From the NCBI GenBank assembly GCA_050049995.1, contig JASFVE010000055.1:1-12728 (forward strand): a stretch of 12,728 nucleotides of DNA, read 5' to 3'. This document shows, piece by piece, positions 3,553-11,798 of the stretch. The notes under the pieces were generated by a model, which ran no database searches, was not told where the DNA came from, and saw only the letters and a program-made list of their open reading frames with translations. Every line of letters starts with the position of its first letter. Positions within the stretch are counted from its first letter, which is position 1. The stretch comes from Chlamydiota bacterium. GTDB lineage: Bacteria > Chlamydiota > Chlamydiia > Chlamydiales > SM23-39. Both the position numbers and the translations under genes were made by a program.

Positions 3553-3915
3553 TTATGACCAAACCAATGCATATGCAAACTCTAACTCCCTGATTTCATG
3601 TGAGAAGTTAGAAGTAGGTTCTAGCTCTAGACTTTTAGCTAGGCTCTTAAAAGTTTTAATATTTTTTTCTATAAAGCTCAATTTTCCTCTTCTTTGTGCT
3701 TTAGTATTGAGAATGATTCTGGCATTAGCATGCATTATAGAAATCAGTTTATCTATTAAATGGCTTAAAAAATTGGGCTTATATAAAAGTGTAATTTGAT
3801 TTCCTTGAGCACTATAAACTTGAAATTTATGCACTTCAGTTCGTTCTTTGTGGTGAGTTTCCTGCGCTGCTACGTACTTGTCTATAATTCTACTTGGTAA
3901 AACAGTAGGTATCAT
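3553..3915 (-). CDS. Hypothetical protein (120 aa)
   Basis: ATG with AGGAG SD about 5 nt upstream; co-oriented with its neighbours; no recognisable domain. Confidence 0.7.
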   Translation of the reverse strand: MIPTVLPSRIIDKYVAAQETHHKERTEVHKFQVYSAQGNQITLLYKPNFLSHLIDKLISIMHANARIILNTKAQRRGKLSFIEKNIKTFKSLAKSLELEPTSNFSHEIRELEFAYALVWS

Positions 3916-4525: not shown

Positions 4526-5461
4526 TTAAATATTTGAGCTAGCTTTGTTAACTCGATTCATTAAAGCTAGATCTTCTTTAGCTATCTCATCGCAAAAAAT
4601 TAAAATCTCTTCAAACTGAAGTGAATCTGCTTTTCTAAAGTTTGCAAAAAGAGTTTGCCTACTTAAAGGCCAACTCAATATAGAGGGTATTTTTTGAGCA
4701 GATAGCACAATCTGTTTTTTAGAGCTCTTATCAGCATACTCTAGCAGTTCATTTAAGGAAAAAAAGACTTTTATTTTTGCAGAAGGTGCATAATGGCGAT
4801 ATTTCATACCAGGTGCAATTGCAAGATGAGAACTTTTTACTTCCCTTTTTAAAACAATCTCTAAGCTTTCTTTAGAAATTGCTCCAGGTCGTAAAAGAAT
4901 AGGAAAATCAGATAAGTAAATGACAGTAGATTCAATACCATGCTGACATGGACCACCGTCTAAAATAAAAGGAATTTTCCCATTAAAATCTTCAAAAACA
5001 TGTTCAGCCAAAGTAGGGCTCGGCCTGCCTGATATGTTTGCTGAAGGGGCAACTAAAGGTTCTTTAACTGCCGCAATCAGATCCAAGGCTGGTTGAAGGC
5101 CAGGCATCCTTATAGCTACTGTAGGTTTTGCTCCAGTTGCAATATCAGGAATATGTGGTTTTTTTTCTAAAATAATAGTAAGTGGACCTGGGAAAAATGC
5201 CTCGCTCAAAAGATAAAATTCTTTTGGAATATTTTGCGCCAGCTCTTCTACCCACTTTATATCATTGATATGGACAATCAAAGGGTTATCAGAAGGTCTA
5301 TTTTTTAAAGTAAAAATTTTCCGCACACTTTCTTCTTGAAATAAGGGAGCTGCCAAACCATAAACAGTTTCTGTAGCAAAAGAAACTAACTCATTGTTTT
5401 TAAGAGCTTTTGCAGCTTTTTTAATATTATCGGGTGTGGGAGAAAGTATTTCTGTTTTCAT
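4526..5461 (-). CDS. sua5: L-threonylcarbamoyladenylate synthase (Sua5/TsaC with C-terminal SUA5 domain)
   Basis: Motifs TETVYGL, KNRPSDNPLIVH, FFPGPLTII, PSANISGRPSPT, GIESTVI and the PGMKYRHYAP linker typical of Sua5. Confidence 0.96.
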   Translation of the reverse strand: MKTEILSPTPDNIKKAAKALKNNELVSFATETVYGLAAPLFQEESVRKIFTLKNRPSDNPLIVHINDIKWVEELAQNIPKEFYLLSEAFFPGPLTIILEKKPHIPDIATGAKPTVAIRMPGLQPALDLIAAVKEPLVAPSANISGRPSPTLAEHVFEDFNGKIPFILDGGPCQHGIESTVIYLSDFPILLRPGAISKESLEIVLKREVKSSHLAIAPGMKYRHYAPSAKIKVFFSLNELLEYADKSSKKQIVLSAQKIPSILSWPLSRQTLFANFRKADSLQFEEILIFCDEIAKEDLALMNRVNKASSNI

Positions 5462-5547
5462 ATCGAAATAGTATAACTAAATGCCTGTTGAAAGAACAGT
5501 TTCAAAAAAGGATTTGATTAAATTTAAAAGAGCTTAAAATAGAAATT

Positions 5548-6303
5548 ATGTATGACTTCCTTATACCAATTCCTATTCTTTCAGATAATTATAGCTACAT
5601 GCTCCGCACAGATAAAAAAGCTCTTATTATTGACCCAGGAGAGTCTCAGTCGATTATAGATGAACTGGAAAAGTTAAATTTACATTTGACCGCTATTCTT
5701 TGTACTCACCACCATTCAGATCACGTGAATGGTGTAGAAGCATTAAAAACTCGATATAATGCAAAAGTCTATGGGCCTAAAGATGATAGAATTCCTTTGT
5801 TGGATGTTGGATTGGATAAATATAGCACTTTAGCATTAGAAGGTTTTCCCTTTAAAATTATAGAAACTCCAGGTCACACAAAAAGTCACATTGTTTTTTT
5901 AGAAGAAAATCATCATATCCTGTTTTCTGGTGACACTCTTTTTGGAGCAGGGTGTGGAAGGCTGTTTGAAGGAAGCTATGAAGAAATGTATAGCTCACTT
6001 CATAAACTCTCCTTACTTAATCCTGATACATATATTTACTTTGGACATGAATACACTTTAAAAAACCTTGAGTTTGCTCATCAACTTTTTCCTGATGATG
6101 ACGCTATTAAAAGCAGGCTTAATACAACTATTCAGTTGAGAAAAAACCATCAATTTACTATTCCCTCAACATTAAATATGGAACTGAAAACAAACCCATT
6201 TTTAAGAGTACATGAACAATCCATTCAAAAATCTTTAGACATGCTAAGTCAAAAGGAGGTAGATGTCTTTGCAAAACTCAGGCAACTTAGAGACAAATTT
6301 TAA
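5548..6303 (+). CDS. gloB: Hydroxyacylglutathione hydrolase (glyoxalase II)
   Basis: DNYSY, THHHSDH metallo-beta-lactamase motif, TPGHT, FSGDTLFGAGCGRLFEG, GHEYT..NL.FA, PSTL..E..TNPFLR. Confidence 0.96.
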   Translation: MYDFLIPIPILSDNYSYMLRTDKKALIIDPGESQSIIDELEKLNLHLTAILCTHHHSDHVNGVEALKTRYNAKVYGPKDDRIPLLDVGLDKYSTLALEGFPFKIIETPGHTKSHIVFLEENHHILFSGDTLFGAGCGRLFEGSYEEMYSSLHKLSLLNPDTYIYFGHEYTLKNLEFAHQLFPDDDAIKSRLNTTIQLRKNHQFTIPSTLNMELKTNPFLRVHEQSIQKSLDMLSQKEVDVFAKLRQLRDKF

Positions 6304-6772
6304 ATTTTTTTGGTCTAAAAGCAAAAGAACCTTACCTGAGCAGTTAATTGGCTTCTTTTTGTTTTTAACAACAATTATTACTATCATGCTAATAAATGCT
6401 TGGATAACAAAACACGCACATTGGGAAAAGCCCCTTATCTTAGAAAGGTTTTTAAATCCTGTTTTGACAGTTGTTTATATTCTTATTTCAGTAAGTTTTT
6501 GGAGCTTATGGAGGAAGTTTTCTTTTAAGCATCTAAAAATGGAGTGTGCCTTTCTTGGGGCTAGCCTTGTTTTGAATGTAGCTTGGCATATAATGTTCTT
6601 ATATTTTAATGAGCCTTTTTTAGGATTGATCATTAATTTAATGATGTTTGCCACATCTATTTTAAGTTTTTATATTTTTTGGAGAAAAGATAGGATTGCT
6701 GCTATTATCTTTTTACCGTATGTAATTTTTAGCAGTATTTTAACTTCTTTTAATATGTTTTATTGTACTTGA
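6263..6772 (+). CDS. tspO: TspO/MBR (translocator protein) family membrane protein, divergent
   Basis: About five hydrophobic helices. KP...PVLTVVY, W.LWRK, LVLNVAWH.MF and FWRKDRIAAIIFLPY...FN align with the TspO pattern KP..PVWT.LY / LN..WS..FF / A..L..PY..W...LN. AGGAGGT inside gloB lies just before the ATG; 41-nt overlap with gloB. Confidence 0.75.
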   Translation: MSLQNSGNLETNFKFFWSKSKRTLPEQLIGFFLFLTTIITIMLINAWITKHAHWEKPLILERFLNPVLTVVYILISVSFWSLWRKFSFKHLKMECAFLGASLVLNVAWHIMFLYFNEPFLGLIINLMMFATSILSFYIFWRKDRIAAIIFLPYVIFSSILTSFNMFYCT

Positions 6773-6779
6773 GGTTTTC

Positions 6780-7109
6780 ATGATCAGATCTACTCCCCTA
6801 ATAATCTTAACCTATGCAATTGTAGTCATCTTATTGGGTTATATGGGCTACTCTAATGCACAAAGCCTCATATCTTTAATTATAGCTGGAATCTTTGGGT
6901 TATTTATTATTTTGATGTTAGGGTTGGCAGCGTATCGTAGAAAAGATTGGCTGTATTACCCAATTGCTGCTGCTGTTTTAGCCCTTCTAGGTTTTTTTGC
7001 TTATAGATTCAGCTCTACAAAAAACTTTATGCCAGGAGTCATGTCGGTATTTTCATTCCTTGTGCTGATACTGACCGTTATAAAAGCTCTTTCTCATCGT
7101 GAAGAATAG
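6780..7109 (+). CDS. TMEM14 (FAX-like) family small membrane protein
   Basis: YA..V...G.MGY..AQS..SLI...IFG and RF..TK.FMPG motifs characteristic of TMEM14; GAGG SD overlaps the upstream stop. Confidence 0.82.
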   Translation: MIRSTPLIILTYAIVVILLGYMGYSNAQSLISLIIAGIFGLFIILMLGLAAYRRKDWLYYPIAAAVLALLGFFAYRFSSTKNFMPGVMSVFSFLVLILTVIKALSHREE

Positions 7110-7817
7110 TTACTGTAAGGCATTTTCAAAGTTTTGATATTGTATGTACCTTTTATTAGCTACACTCCAATCAATACTATTGAAAAATGTTTCGATATAT
7201 TTTTTTCTGTTTAAACCAAACTGAATAAGATAGGCATGTTCCCAAACATCCATCACTAAAATGATATCTCCTGTAGCCAAATGACCTACATCATGTTCGT
7301 TAATCCAAGTATTGATTAGTTTTCCATTCTTAGGATCAAGGTATAGAATAACCCACCCAATCCCTCGGATTTGACCTGTTGCCATAAAATCTTCTTTCCA
7401 CTGATTGTAACTTCCAAAATCTTTTGCAATTGCATGATACAATGGAGTATCAGATTTAAGACTGCTTGTTTTTCCCATATTTCCAAAGTACAGCTCATGC
7501 AACCGCATTCCATCAAATTCCCAGCCTAACCTTCTTTTTAGTGCCCCAAAAATATAGGATGTAGCTTTTTTCGAATTTGCAAGTGATTTTAACTCTTCTA
7601 AAAGATAGTTAGTATTTTTAACATACCCTTCATAGAGCTTAAAGTGCATATTTAGTAGCTCATCATCAAACTCTGTAATGTTCAAAAGATAAGAAAAATC
7701 TTTCGCTTCATACCTACTATTAGACATGCTAGAAGATCTTTGACCTGGGTTTGATGCTGCATAAGAAAAAAAGATACAAAAAACAAAGGATAAAAGAATT
7801 TTCAATAATCTGCTCAT
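7110..7817 (-). CDS. sod: Fe/Mn superoxide dismutase family protein with N-terminal signal-peptide-like extension
   Basis: Ligand motifs MHFKLYEGYV, LHELYF, GIGWVIL, MDVWEHAY; leader MSRLLKILLSFVFCIFFSYAA; GGAAGG SD upstream. Confidence 0.92.
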   Translation of the reverse strand: MSRLLKILLSFVFCIFFSYAASNPGQRSSSMSNSRYEAKDFSYLLNITEFDDELLNMHFKLYEGYVKNTNYLLEELKSLANSKKATSYIFGALKRRLGWEFDGMRLHELYFGNMGKTSSLKSDTPLYHAIAKDFGSYNQWKEDFMATGQIRGIGWVILYLDPKNGKLINTWINEHDVGHLATGDIILVMDVWEHAYLIQFGLNRKKYIETFFNSIDWSVANKRYIQYQNFENALQ

Positions 7818-7829
7818 GTTTAAACCTTC

Positions 7830-8195
7830 CTATTTTTTTAATGGGTACTTGGCTTGCCCCTTTAAAGAAGTTAATAATTGGTGAATAGAAGAAAAAACTC
7901 GGTAAGATTTAGAGGTCAAATCAGGATTATCATCGTATAAAATCCATCCTTTTTCCGTCTGAACTAGCATTAGTTCCTTGATAGCATTTTCTTTTTCTTT
8001 GATCGTAATAATATAACAATGGATAGCTGTATGGTTTTCTCTAGCTAAAAGCTCTTCAATATTTTTAGTAATCAAATCTCCTTTACGAACGAGATAGGTT
8101 CCCGGTTTTTGATCTTTTAAAAGACGCTCTGCTTCTAAATGATCTACCCCTTTTTTCCAACCAGGTAAAGATGCAATGGGTCGTGAATTAGTCAT
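7830..8195 (-). CDS. Stand-alone SH2-like domain protein (121 aa)
   Basis: W..G.D..EAERLL....PGTYLVR (cf. WYHG.ISR.EAE.LL....GTFLVRES), CYIITIK (betaC), IKELML (betaD), FSSIHQLL (cf. F.SL.ELV) and terminal KYPL. Confidence 0.78.
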   Translation of the reverse strand: MTNSRPIASLPGWKKGVDHLEAERLLKDQKPGTYLVRKGDLITKNIEELLARENHTAIHCYIITIKEKENAIKELMLVQTEKGWILYDDNPDLTSKSYRVFSSIHQLLTSLKGQAKYPLKK

Positions 8196-8279
8196 TAGAC
8201 TATATATGCTTTTTTATTGATCTATAATTAAATTTCCTAAAAAGGACAATTAAATCATGAAACATACAAAGAAAAGCAG

Positions 8280-8313
8280 AGTAAAGAATGGTCCCTTCTA
8301 GAAGGAAGGGACC
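8280..8313 (-). terminator. Intrinsic terminator downstream of the orphan pair
   Basis: Perfect 9-bp stem GGTCCCTTC (8290-8298) / GAAGGGACC (8305-8313), 6-nt loop, followed on the minus strand by ATTCTTT; begins 7 nt after the stop at 8321. Confidence 0.7.
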
Positions 8314-8320
8314 TCTGATT

Positions 8321-8773
8321 TTATTTATTCCAGTTAAAAAATTCAGTGACTGCACTAACTCCAGAGTCGATATATGAACTTGCTTGCTTCTCCGCCTTAC
8401 CCGCCATGAGGTTCACAAGCCAACCTGTACCCCAGTAAGCTTTCTCTTTTTCTTTACTAACTCGGGATGATACTATGTGTTTGAAAAAGCCTCCCACTGT
8501 TTGCGTTGCGCTGGATCCCAGACCGCCAATTTTTCCAATAGAAGAAGTAAGTTCAAATGTTTCTATTACGGTTGTTATACCGGATGCAGCAACCTCAACA
8601 ATTCTCCAAGGAAGAGATTCCTCTTCCTCACATTCTGCGCGCTCTTTATTAAGCCATCTAACTAAGCCAGGAGGCAAAATTTCAGACTCATTATTTACAT
8701 CCCACCATTTACCGTCATAAAAAACTTCAGATGCTCTTATTTTATAACCACCAGGTACATTAATAGCTGCCAT
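8321..8773 (-). CDS. Hypothetical protein (150 aa), Gly/Ser- and Trp-containing, amphipathic segments
   Basis: Strong AGGAGGT SD inside the upstream ORF, TAATG stop-start overlap, terminator downstream. Confidence 0.8.
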   Translation of the reverse strand: MAAINVPGGYKIRASEVFYDGKWWDVNNESEILPPGLVRWLNKERAECEEEESLPWRIVEVAASGITTVIETFELTSSIGKIGGLGSSATQTVGGFFKHIVSSRVSKEKEKAYWGTGWLVNLMAGKAEKQASSYIDSGVSAVTEFFNWNK

Positions 8774-9132
8774 TAATTACCTCCTCCTAAATTTTTTGCC
8801 ACATAAGCTACGGTTGCTGCTACAGCAGAGGTAGCCACAATAGTATCTCGTGTAACTGCAGATGAAGCTTTTCTGTCAGCGCTTTCTGCCGTTGCCTGAT
8901 CTGCCTTCATTTGCACTACAGATGCTTGAGTTGAAATTAAAGAACTATATACTTTAGCTGCTGCCCCTCCTGCTACAAGACCTACTGCAGGTCCAGCTGC
9001 AGCTCCAACTAAAGCTGCTGCTGCAACAGTTGTCACACATAGTTCACTTTTAGGATGGCTAGAAACTATTCCACCAGCATTAGGAACTTCAGTTTTTTTG
9101 TCTCCACTAAACCAACTAATAATACCACTCAT
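8773..9132 (-). CDS. Hypothetical Ala/Gly-rich protein with glycine-zipper-like hydrophobic hairpin (119 aa)
   Basis: VAAAALVGAAAGPAVGLVAGGAAA and C-terminal TIVATSAVAATVAYVA hydrophobic stretches; AGGT upstream of the ATG; coupled to the downstream ORF. Confidence 0.8.
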   Translation of the reverse strand: MSGIISWFSGDKKTEVPNAGGIVSSHPKSELCVTTVAAAALVGAAAGPAVGLVAGGAAAKVYSSLISTQASVVQMKADQATAESADRKASSAVTRDTIVATSAVAATVAYVAKNLGGGN

Positions 9133-9286
9133 ATATTTACCTGTTATTTTAATTTTTTAATACAAGGAGCGAAATGCTACAACTTGTCTAAATTTTTTTA
9201 CCACATGTTTTCTCAAAAAATTTATTAGTTGCAGAGAAAAAAGCGTTTTTACATTCTCTCGATTTAAGACTTCATTGCTAAAAATT

Positions 9287-10711
9287 ATGCAAAACAAACG
9301 ATTTTTAAATGTTTTTGTCTTAGCCATGTTGAATATGGCTATCATGTCTAGCCTTAGGAATTTAACAATAGTTGCAGAGTATGGCTTTGCCTCCATTTTT
9401 CTCTATGGAGTTGCGGCTCTATTGTTTCTTTTTCCAGCCGCTCTTGTTTCAGCAGAACTTGCTACCGGATGGTCTAAAATTGGTGGAATCTATATTTGGG
9501 TAAGGGAGGCGTTTGGGCCTAGATGGGGCTTTTTTGCTATTTGGATGCAGTGGGTACATAATGTAACTTGGTATCCTGCTATTTTATCTTTCGTAGCTAT
9601 TATGATTGCTTATATTTTTAACCCCACACTAGCTGGCAGCAAGGCTTTTATCTTAAGTGTCATTTTAATCGGATTTTGGTTAATGACCTTTTTTAATTTT
9701 TTAGGACTTAAATCCTCTAGTATACTAAGTACTTTCGGGGTTATTATCGGGACAATTCTACCTGGTATTTTTATTATTGTTTTAGGAGCTCATTGGATAA
9801 TCGATCAAAATCCGATTCAAATCTCTTTTTCTTACAAATCCTTTTTTCCGGATTTCACTAATGTTTATAACCTTGTATTTTTAGCGGGCATGTTTTTAGC
9901 TTTTGGAGGACTTGAGGTATCAGCAGTTCACGCAAATGAAGTAAAAAATCCTCAAAAAAATTACCCCAGAGCTATATTGCTATCAGCAGTTTTGACATTT
10001 TTTCTATTTATTTTTGGCTCTTTATCAATAGCTGCGGTGATTCCCCATGAAAAGTTAAATCTGCTTAAGGGAGTCATGAACGCTTTTGAGTTTTTCTTAC
10101 AACAGTATAATTTAAGATTTTTGATTCCTGTTATTGCCAGTTTTATCATCGTAGGGGGCATAGCAGAACTAAATACCTGGATTATTGGACCTGTAAGAGG
10201 GTTATATGCAACGTCAAAACATGGCGATCTTCCCCCTTTTTTCCAAAAGCTCAATAAAAATAAGGTTCCAACTCGGCTGCTCTTATTTCAAAGTGTTATT
10301 GTTTCTTTAGCTTCTTTGGTATTTTTAATGATGCCTACGGCCAGTGATTCCTTTTGGATTTTAAGCGCTTTAACAGCAGAGCTTTACTTAATTATGTATG
10401 GATTTATGTTTGCGGCGGCCATCAAATTAAGATATAGTCACCCTCATGTAGAAAGAGCATATAAGATCCCTTACGCCCACAAAGGAATGTGGTTTGTAGC
10501 GGGCTTAGGCTTTATAACTTCGGTTTTAGCATTTTTTATTAGTTTTATACCTCCGGGACAGCTTAAGATTACTAACATCTTTTCCTATGAGCTATTCCTT
10601 ATAGGCGGTGTTGTCATTATGACGGCAATCCCTTTAATTATTTATCAGCTAAAAAAACCTGCTTGGTATTCTTATAATCAAGACATTTTAAAGGAAAACA
10701 GAAAGGATTAA
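9287..10711 (+). CDS. APC-superfamily amino acid permease (GadC/XasA-like)
   Basis: About 12 TM helices; SLRNL, FLFPAALVSAELAT, GGIYIWVREAFGPRWGF, FGGLEVSAVHANEVKNPQKNYP, GDLPPFF.K.NK..VP. The ATG at 9287 is preferred over the TTG at 9275. Confidence 0.92.
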   Translation: MQNKRFLNVFVLAMLNMAIMSSLRNLTIVAEYGFASIFLYGVAALLFLFPAALVSAELATGWSKIGGIYIWVREAFGPRWGFFAIWMQWVHNVTWYPAILSFVAIMIAYIFNPTLAGSKAFILSVILIGFWLMTFFNFLGLKSSSILSTFGVIIGTILPGIFIIVLGAHWIIDQNPIQISFSYKSFFPDFTNVYNLVFLAGMFLAFGGLEVSAVHANEVKNPQKNYPRAILLSAVLTFFLFIFGSLSIAAVIPHEKLNLLKGVMNAFEFFLQQYNLRFLIPVIASFIIVGGIAELNTWIIGPVRGLYATSKHGDLPPFFQKLNKNKVPTRLLLFQSVIVSLASLVFLMMPTASDSFWILSALTAELYLIMYGFMFAAAIKLRYSHPHVERAYKIPYAHKGMWFVAGLGFITSVLAFFISFIPPGQLKITNIFSYELFLIGGVVIMTAIPLIIYQLKKPAWYSYNQDILKENRKD

Positions 10712-10712
10712 C

Positions 10713-11318
10713 ATGCATCAGAATGAAATTACTAAAGAAGTTCAAGATCATAGAAAAAGCACCTATTCTATACACCCTATTATACTAAATAGATGGTCTC
10801 CTAGAGCGATGACAGGAGAATCTTTAAGTGATGAGGAATTATTTCCCCTTTTTGAAGCAGCAAGATGGGCTCCTTCTTCTTACAACAATCAACATTGGCG
10901 ATTTCTTTATGCTCATAGAGATACTAGTGAATTTGATCTTTTTTTTAACTTATTAGTCGATGCTAATAAACAATGGGCCAAAAATGCTTCCGTTTTATTA
11001 GTTATAATTTCTTATAATCTTTTCGATAGAAATCAAAAGCCCGCTCCTACTCATAGTTTTGATACGGGAGCTGCCTGGCAAAATTTAGCGCTAGAGGGGT
11101 CTGCCCGAGGGCTAGTAGTGCATGGCATGCAAGGATTTGACTATGAGAAAGCTAAGAAAGTCTTAGAAATCCCAGATGATTATACAGTAGAGGCTATGGC
11201 AGCCATTGGGAAAAAAGCATCTAAAGAAGTTCTTGCCCCTGAACTTGCTGAAAAAGAAAAACCCAACAGCCGTAAAGACTTAAAGGAAATAATTATCAAA
11301 GGGAAATTCAAAAAATAG
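10713..11318 (+). CDS. Nitroreductase family protein (FMN-dependent oxidoreductase)
   Basis: RWSPRAM, EAARWAPSSYNNQHWRF, DTGAAWQNLAL, HGMQGFD; starts 1 nt after the permease stop. Confidence 0.93.
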   Translation: MHQNEITKEVQDHRKSTYSIHPIILNRWSPRAMTGESLSDEELFPLFEAARWAPSSYNNQHWRFLYAHRDTSEFDLFFNLLVDANKQWAKNASVLLVIISYNLFDRNQKPAPTHSFDTGAAWQNLALEGSARGLVVHGMQGFDYEKAKKVLEIPDDYTVEAMAAIGKKASKEVLAPELAEKEKPNSRKDLKEIIIKGKFKK

Positions 11319-11375: not shown

Positions 11376-11798
11376 TTAAGCTAGTACAAGCTCTTCCATT
11401 TTTTTAGACTTTCTTTTTCTTCTAGTAGCTGGCTTTTTAGTAGCTGCTTTTTTTCTAGTAGATTTTCTTTTAGTAGCTTTTTTTGCAGGCTTTTTAGTAG
11501 CTGCTTTTTTTCTAGTAGTCTTTCTTCTAGTAGTTTTCTTTGCAGTTTTTTTAGCTGCTTTTTTTCTAGTAGTCTTTCTTCTAGTAGCTTTTTTTGCAGG
11601 CTTTTTAGCTGCTTTTTTTCTAGTAGATTTTCTTTTAGTAGCTTTTTTTGCAGTTTTTTTAGCTGCTTTTTTTCTAGTAGTTTTTCTTCTAGTAGTTTTC
11701 TTTGCAGGCTTTTTAGTAGCTGCTTTTCTTCTAGTAGTTTTTCTTGTTGATTTACGAGCTGCTGTTTTAGCAGTCGACTTTCTTTTTCTTTTCAACAT
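11376..11798 (-). CDS. hctB: Histone H1-like DNA-condensing protein, Hc2/HctB-like
   Basis: Almost entirely K/R/A/T/P/S repeats; N-terminus MLKRKRKSTAKTAARK resembles the chlamydial Hc2 start (ML...KKRST.KTAARK); AAGGAGG SD upstream. Orthology is inferred from composition and N-terminus. Confidence 0.75.
   Translation of the reverse strand: MLKRKRKSTAKTAARKSTRKTTRRKAATKKPAKKTTRRKTTRKKAAKKTAKKATKRKSTRKKAAKKPAKKATRRKTTRKKAAKKTAKKTTRRKTTRKKAATKKPAKKATKRKSTRKKAATKKPATRRKRKSKKMEELVLA
11427..11726 (-). repeat. Coding tandem repeat: five 54/57-bp units plus a partial sixth
   Basis: Units KAA(T)KK[PT]AKK[AT]T[RK]RK[TS]TRK of 19, 18, 18, 18 and 19 aa (residues 25-116), then KAATKKPA. Confidence 0.9.

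Follow-up and report, generated by a model that had tools for sequence, protein, structure and literature searches.

An ORF of 121 amino acids in the genome of an environmental chlamydia encodes a protein predicted, from a structural model, to adopt the fold of SH2, a domain through which eukaryotic cells recognise phosphorylated tyrosine. Judged by sequence comparison, it belongs to an inherited, single-copy, syntenic family that is found in two chlamydial families (here f1 and f7), and it is a derived, stand-alone form from which a 150-residue N-terminal domain has been lost. The chlamydial SH2 family is apparently undescribed. Characterised bacterial SH2 domains come from the Legionellales and are treated as host-directed effectors; the chlamydial family adds a second phylum, with an old single-copy gene in a housekeeping locus and a rebuilt phosphate-binding loop. 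We tentatively read the protein as a small non-enzymatic reader of phosphorylated proteins that would act inside the bacterium, a putative role to which we give a little less than an even chance. The features of the window, meaning the whole stretch of 12,728 nt that was analysed, are collected in Table 1.

The gene, its fold and its locus

The SH2 assignment had been made by eye from the ORF alone, and the motifs and residue calls quoted for it are all correct. The protein clears the cut-off of the Pfam SH2 model (PF00017) only marginally, with 21.4 bits versus 21 and over residues 21-38 only. With the 121-aa protein as query, a word-indexed sequence search returned one relative only and a single-sequence search of solved structures returned no match. 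Pfam SH2 matches at E<=0.01 were obtained for 67 of 150 family members, and the family profile matches many solved SH2 domains (best E 4.5e-8). The AlphaFold2 model of the query (150 sequences) has a pLDDT of 94.9 and a pTM of 0.87, with helices at residues 19-26, 41-54 and 104-110 and strands at 33-38, 59-66, 72-79 and 84-87. This predicted arrangement is a central antiparallel sheet flanked by two helices, as an SH2 domain requires. Foldseek with the query model found SOCS3 (E 2.3e-5) and a wide structural search SOCS1 (Z 12.0, rmsd 2.2 A over 95 residues); all of the 50 structural matches listed are SH2 domains. The proposed fold is thus upheld both by a confident model and by the fold searches that had been suggested as a check.

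Compared with a congeneric genome (G001), the ORF has 17 synonymous and two non-synonymous codon changes, and the neighbouring superoxide dismutase (SOD) gene 27 and five. The ORF is therefore a real gene on which purifying selection is acting. The same counts largely refute the idea of a decaying remnant of a two-domain gene, functionless in this genome. Both the N-terminal domain and the alphaA2 arginine have been lost here and the family is dispensable in related genomes, as a remnant would have it, but intact stand-alone genes with the same histidine exist in another genus at 47-50% identity, and we consider this explanation very improbable.

Table 1 The SH2 gene, its key codons and the surrounding features, with positions in the window
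Feature	Position	Strand	Basis or remark
SH2-fold gene, 121 aa, stand-alone form of a chlamydial two-domain family	7830..8195	-	ORF translation, Pfam, model, fold search, purifying selection
His19 codon, alphaA2	8139..8141	-	Arg in 138/151 family members
Glu23 codon, alphaA6	8127..8129	-	Glu in 148/151
Arg37 codon, betaB5 'FLVR' arginine	8085..8087	-	Arg in 143/151; model
Predicted helix 41-54 inserted in BC loop; preceded by Asp40 (123/151), likely helix cap	8034..8075	-	Model, profile alignment
Glu74 codon, betaD4	7974..7976	-	Asp or Glu in 146/151
Family motif W84-x-x-Y87-x-D89-x-P91-x-L93, betaE and following loop	7917..7946	-	Residue counts
Signal-peptide-type Fe/Mn SOD, second SOD of the genome, hydrophobic N-terminus	7110..7817	-	Co-oriented, 12 nt downstream of SH2 gene
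Terminator-like hairpin between upstream 150-aa ORF and SH2 gene	8290..8313	.	
Two ORFs, 119 and 150 aa, between permease and SH2 gene	8321..9132 (8321-8773, 8773-9132)	-	Only in this genus among loci compared
Amino-acid permease and nitroreductase, conserved upstream landmarks	9275..11318	+	Pfam, synteny
Sua5-like gene, glyoxalase II, TspO, Tmemb_14, conserved downstream landmarks	4526..7109	.	Pfam, synteny

The SOD gene is a conserved neighbour of the SH2 gene and probably co-transcribed with it. A canonical SOD is encoded on contig C14, and many f1 genomes carry both SODs. The second SOD was rejected as an obligate partner, as it persists without the SH2 gene and the SH2 gene is also found without it. 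Eight SOD loci were taken from genomes without an SH2 match: in two the order nitroreductase-SOD-Tmemb_14-glyoxalase-Sua5 is intact with the SH2 gene alone missing, and the other six lie in other contexts. Across 53 loci with short flanks (eight duplicate, same-genus or unrelated loci having been dropped), a permease gene is nearby in 23, an Inc-like gene in 19, nitroreductase in 16, TspO in 15, Sua5 and ProC in 14 each and SOD in 13. The name Sua5 is our presumption from the sequence rather than from a family scan. The adjacent TspO and Tmemb_14 genes (6263-7109, +) are conserved together across f1 loci; both families are known from mitochondrial membranes.

The two ORFs upstream of the SH2 gene overlap at stop and start, have no paralogues and are not the lost N-terminal domain; the 119-aa product contains a paired Gly/Ala-rich hydrophobic stretch. 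Further out, positions 11376-11798 (-) encode a Lys/Arg/Ala/Thr-rich histone-like protein with a weak HC2 match (E 0.019), and ORFs of 138 and 120 aa (343-759, +; 3553-3915, -) match no Pfam family significantly and are without paralogues in this genome.

A predicted rebuilding of the phosphate pocket

An exhaustive search for relatives (E<=0.001) gave 214 clusters at 50% identity. The analysis used the 150 that were listed, and residue counts refer to these and the query, 151 sequences with 23-48% identity to the query, its close twin excepted. Most of the peculiarities noted in the original prediction are, on this alignment, not specific to this copy. His19 and Glu74 had been placed correctly at alphaA2 and betaD4, and the conservation of Arg37 at betaB5, named as a check, holds among homologues. 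The BC-loop insertion had been described as helical-looking, and residues 41-54 indeed form a helix between betaB and betaC in the model. HHalign to a second chlamydial SH2 family (family B) likewise places the insert in the BC loop and sets Glu74 on the invariant betaD4 His of family B. The distance from Arg37 to Thr64 (Thr or Ser in 141 of 151) is 25-26 residues in 133 of 150 sequences versus 10 in 11 of 16 family B members, which gives an insert of 16 residues.

The claim of a non-canonical pocket stands in part. The insert and the acidic betaD4 are family-wide, but most members keep the canonical alphaA2 arginine, and position 38 is Glu in 45 and Lys in 40 of the 151, so the KG after Arg37 is unconserved. 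Both arginines are kept in 132 members; 19 are without one of the two, three of these through gaps. His19 occurs in four of the 151 sequences, all short and grouping together (SH-aLRT 87) in a quick tree of 94 rows and 121 columns in which 44 of 91 forks are open. Five more His-type metagenomic loci are also short and lie 2-14 nt before a SOD gene. The alignment thus suggests that the insert and the acidic betaD4 define the family, that His19 marks one stand-alone clade and that KG defines nothing. The prediction of a distinct SH2 subfamily is borne out with the BC-loop helix, the acidic betaD4 and the W-x-x-Y-x-D-x-P-x-L motif as its markers, the motif residues being conserved in 148 (W), 120 (Y), 147 (D), 123 (P) and 144 (L) of the 151.

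SH2 domains that bind phosphotyrosine (pTyr) combine betaB5 with a basic residue at alphaA2 or betaD6 (PMC7530234). In the register inferred from profile alignment to family B, betaD6 is Met76 in the query and holds no basic residue; across the 151 it is Leu in 92, Thr in 33, Val in seven, Met in six, and Ile and Phe in four each. By its residues the family at large fits the alphaA2 class of pTyr binders. This copy has neither basic residue; it has no more than His19, with two lysines close by, Lys38 and Lys73, that are not conserved.

The closest known relatives by fold are the eukaryotic Src-class SH2 domains (SOCS1 6c5x, SOCS3 2hmh, Abl, p120RasGAP, PLC-gamma; PF00017), which share the whole fold (Z 11.5-12.0, rmsd 2.0-3.1 A over 90-100 residues), the betaB5 arginine and, in most chlamydial members, the alphaA2 arginine. 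The chlamydial family differs in being bacterial, in its 16-residue helical BC-loop insert, acidic betaD4 and own W-Y-D-P-L motif, and is 12-27% identical to them; this copy differs further in its alphaA2 histidine. The Spt6 SH2 domains (3gxw, 6gme; Z 10.3 and 9.3) share the fold and offer a precedent for reading phosphothreonine or phosphoserine (pThr, pSer) through the FLVR arginine (PMC7530234). Spt6 carries a tandem module in a transcription factor, whereas the chlamydial N-terminal domain shows no similarity to SH2 in profile alignments. Legionella LeSH, RavO, DoSH and LUSH are likewise SH2 proteins of a host-associated bacterium, some of them stand-alone, and RavO has a four-residue BC helix; LeSH and RavO use betaB5 and betaD6 arginines, whereas betaD6 is hydrophobic or Thr in the chlamydial family (PMC6208348). 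No Legionella SH2 domain appeared among the sequence matches or the 50 structural matches listed.

The prediction from the model is that Arg37 lies at the bottom of the pocket and that a short turn and a helix of 14 residues take the place of the ordinary phosphate-binding loop. The N-terminus of this helix, capped by Asp40, may complete the grip on phosphate together with the alphaA2 arginine of most members, standing in for the lost Ser/Thr loop, and the acidic betaD4 would orient Arg37 as His does in other SH2 domains. Members of the His19 clade may bind more weakly or more selectively. Because both arginines have long been conserved, we infer an anionic, probably phosphorylated, ligand.

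The same residues can be read as a phosphate-independent scaffold. On this reading alphaA6 and betaD4, both acidic, would occupy the arginines, or the arginines would hold an acidic side chain, as happens in SH2 domains of the JAK family, and the functional surface would consist of the inserted helix and the W-Y-D-P-L motif. Consistent with this, the Ser/Thr-rich BC loop is gone, the median net charge of the domain is -4, and the acidic betaD4 (146/151) and the W, D and L of the motif are conserved at least as well as either arginine; the JAK and p120RasGAP SH2 domains are precedents (PMC7530234). It would leave unaccounted for, however, two arginines at canonical phosphate-binding positions in 132 diverse members, and RavO, which also has a short BC helix, binds pTyr (PMC6208348). 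We regard a scaffold as unlikely.

The two-domain family and its inheritance

The usual form of the family is a 150-residue N-terminal domain followed by SH2 (long-form model pLDDT 92.6). Among the 151 sequences, 109 have at least 200 aa and 33 at most 140 aa, and some of the short metagenomic ones may be fragments. A profile search with the N-terminal domain (lengths 61-284 only) found 75 proteins, 74 with an SH2 domain and one a 109-aa piece; members have no Pfam match in common over this domain. It was not found in positions 7800-9400 of the window or in the rest of the genome (1.88 Mb, 98% complete), and this copy is thus truly stand-alone, as had been claimed.

In its own family, f1, the gene is present in 53 of 103 genomes, exactly one copy each, as 43 long and 10 short forms, and since the long form prevails the stand-alone form is, by comparison of sequences, the derived one. 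A quick tree was built from 53 genome-anchored domains, 41 of them long and 12 short, after removal of six duplicates and of one locus at a contig edge. It has eight long/short changes, and a single clade of short forms is rejected (p-AU 9.6e-41). Of two other accounts of the N-terminal domain, one was rejected and one lacks support. In the first, rejected, the gene would be split; the two upstream ORFs have no match to the N-terminal-domain profile, and neither the 7800-9400 interval nor the genome holds a remnant. In the second, the N-terminal domain would be a degenerate SH2, making the long form a tandem module like those of Spt6 or Syk/ZAP-70, as suggested by its helix-strands-helix order, an Atlas feature match of 0.76 (below the lead threshold) and Syk as the first Foldseek match. 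Profile alignments to SH2 do not support this (probability 0.5% and 0.2%), and the Syk match has an rmsd of 12-19 A and a TM of 0.26-0.29 in a search with the whole long-form model, including its N-terminal domain, where SH2 matches fill the listing.

Of 400 Chlamydiota genomes (one unscored), 122 have a match and 95 a match at E<1e-20: this genome, 29 of 68 other f1, 64 of 90 f7 and one f42 genome. Genomes of f19 (0/23), f20 (0/29), f23 (0/35) and f37 (0/17) yielded no match, and those of f22 weak ones only (5/46). Family labels change only three times on the 53-row tree, and with its single copies and conserved locus the family stands apart from family B, which is patchy and multi-copy. The relatives carry the label Chlamydiota, and one f7 member clusters with a protein labelled Rhabdochlamydiaceae. 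The gene is absent from all 24 hydrogenase-bearing f1 genomes and present in 53 of the 79 others; kin are not independent in this count, and the absence probably reflects a single loss. With its hydrogenase-bearing members f1 fits the Anoxychlamydiales, and these and the Rhabdochlamydiaceae both belong to chlamydial Group 1 (PMC9816063). This genome would then lie outside the hydrogenase-bearing Anoxychlamydiaceae.

A search of viral contigs with the His-clade alignment, which reaches close relatives only, found no member. In automatic annotation the name 'SH2 domain-containing protein' is already attached to a few members, and two clusters in the Atlas, both mostly chlamydial, have partial SH2 matches (scores 0.89, lead level). 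Full-text searches, whose coverage leaves out most subscription journals, found no literature describing SH2 domains in Chlamydiae. In PMC6208348, 93 SH2 domains from Legionella and Coxiellaceae are described; 'chlamyd' does not occur in its main text, and other taxa may appear in its Supplementary Table 1. PMC7542358 adds no chlamydial SH2 domain.

Inside the bacterium or in the host

The original prediction offered two functional options, a host-directed effector or a reader of phospho-ligands within the bacterium, and the evidence leans towards the latter. An intrabacterial location is suggested because the long form folds from residue 3 (pLDDT 90-97 over residues 1-20 of the model), N-termini are charged and low in Ser/Thr/Pro/Asn, short forms have few residues before alphaA2 (median ~17) and the whole N-terminus has been shed repeatedly. 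Repeated loss of the entire N-terminal domain while the gene stays under purifying selection is difficult to reconcile with a type III signal located at the N-terminus. Chlamydial type III effectors have a disordered, Ser/Thr/Pro-rich N-terminal signal. Over the first 25 residues, the Ser/Thr/Pro/Asn fraction is 0.19 in 95 long and 0.16 in 28 short forms (charged 0.30-0.32), compared with 0.19 in the Sua5 neighbour (charged 0.25) and 0.45 (n=14) and 0.47 (n=3) in Inc-like neighbours and tandem kinase-like proteins (charged 0.13-0.15). It should be noted that this composition is a rough heuristic, the nitroreductase control being intermediate at 0.32 and the query itself at 0.24.

The rival is a secreted effector that would dock on host phosphotyrosine proteins in the manner of Legionella LeSH, the long form using its N-terminal domain as the output module. 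The genome encodes a type III export gate in a secretion locus and has four nucleotide-transporter matches; no low-molecular-weight tyrosine phosphatase was found in the genome and no BY-kinase over the cut-off, leaving it with no dedicated tyrosine kinase or phosphatase detected. The closest folds are eukaryotic pTyr readers, and seven of nine predicted Legionella SH2 effectors tested were translocated (PMC6208348). An Inc-like gene adjoins the SH2 gene in 19 of the 53 loci, from Rhabdochlamydiaceae-type genomes, and the absence from hydrogenase-bearing f1 genomes, though probably one event, could reflect a change of host. The lack of a basic alphaA2 or betaD6 in this copy, the 19 members without one of the two arginines and the absence of the gene from two otherwise intact loci also count against an intrabacterial reader. 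An effector is in turn at odds with the folded, conserved, charged and repeatedly lost N-termini, the single copy in housekeeping synteny and an SH2 domain that stops a few residues short of the C-terminus. We consider it rather unlikely, but a serious possibility; even then, the family would say something about the mostly unknown hosts of two chlamydial families, namely that they are likely to have phosphotyrosine signalling.

For the intrabacterial reader, the ligands would be sites, pTyr or pThr/pSer, phosphorylated by Hanks-type kinases of the bacterium itself, of which the genome has six. C. pneumoniae PknD phosphorylates Tyr, and C. trachomatis Pkn1/PknD is reported not to (PMC5177608). 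Without the N-terminal domain, proteins of the His19 clade might be site-capping competitors rather than two-ended adaptors. More broadly, Group 1 chlamydiae may have taken SH2 into their own signalling, as an ancient inherited family with a helix-rebuilt pocket that reads Hanks-type kinase sites inside the cell; this would be the first SH2 to serve a prokaryote internally instead of being turned on a host, and it would be one part of a broader, undescribed set of chlamydial SH2 proteins that includes a second family and a tyrosine phosphatase with SH2 repeats. We hold this as a conceivable but speculative scenario, with about one chance in three in its favour. If the protein is intrabacterial, reading of the pTyr style extends beyond eukaryotes and the organisms that manipulate them. 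Members that differ naturally in Arg or His, and in long or short form, allow the specificity of the pocket to be tested on small soluble proteins.

Several further genes were observed beside this family. Three tandem kinase-like genes on contig C21 of this genome (14663-20238; L086-L088) lack the usual HRD and DFG motifs, have Ser/Pro-rich N-termini and are likely secreted pseudokinases or atypical kinases. The Inc-like membrane protein (L029:2290-3681, -, and 18 other loci) has hydrophobic pairs, a Ser/Thr-rich N-terminus and no Pfam match; a distant relative is encoded on contig C28 of this genome (E 1e-7).

Family B (~120 aa; loci L062-L081, e.g. L064:720-1076, +, and L067:692-1060, +) occurs in 69 of 400 genomes from at least nine families. 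It was not found in this genome, and full-text searches found no description of it. It matches the present family with a profile probability of 98.7% over 100 columns and has the betaB5 arginine in 16 of 16 members; it differs in its short BC loop, His at betaD4, mostly Gly at alphaA2, and stand-alone form in one to three copies. A 618-aa chlamydial protein (L069:940-2796, +) has three SH2-like repeats followed by an apparent tyrosine phosphatase domain, which we take to be one from its HCRAGVGRS motif and which is reminiscent of SHP-type phosphatases. Two longer chlamydial proteins (L074:2-1495, +; L078:857-2014, -) end in an SH2-like domain, with an N-terminus that by eye is ankyrin-like in one and F-box-like in the other.
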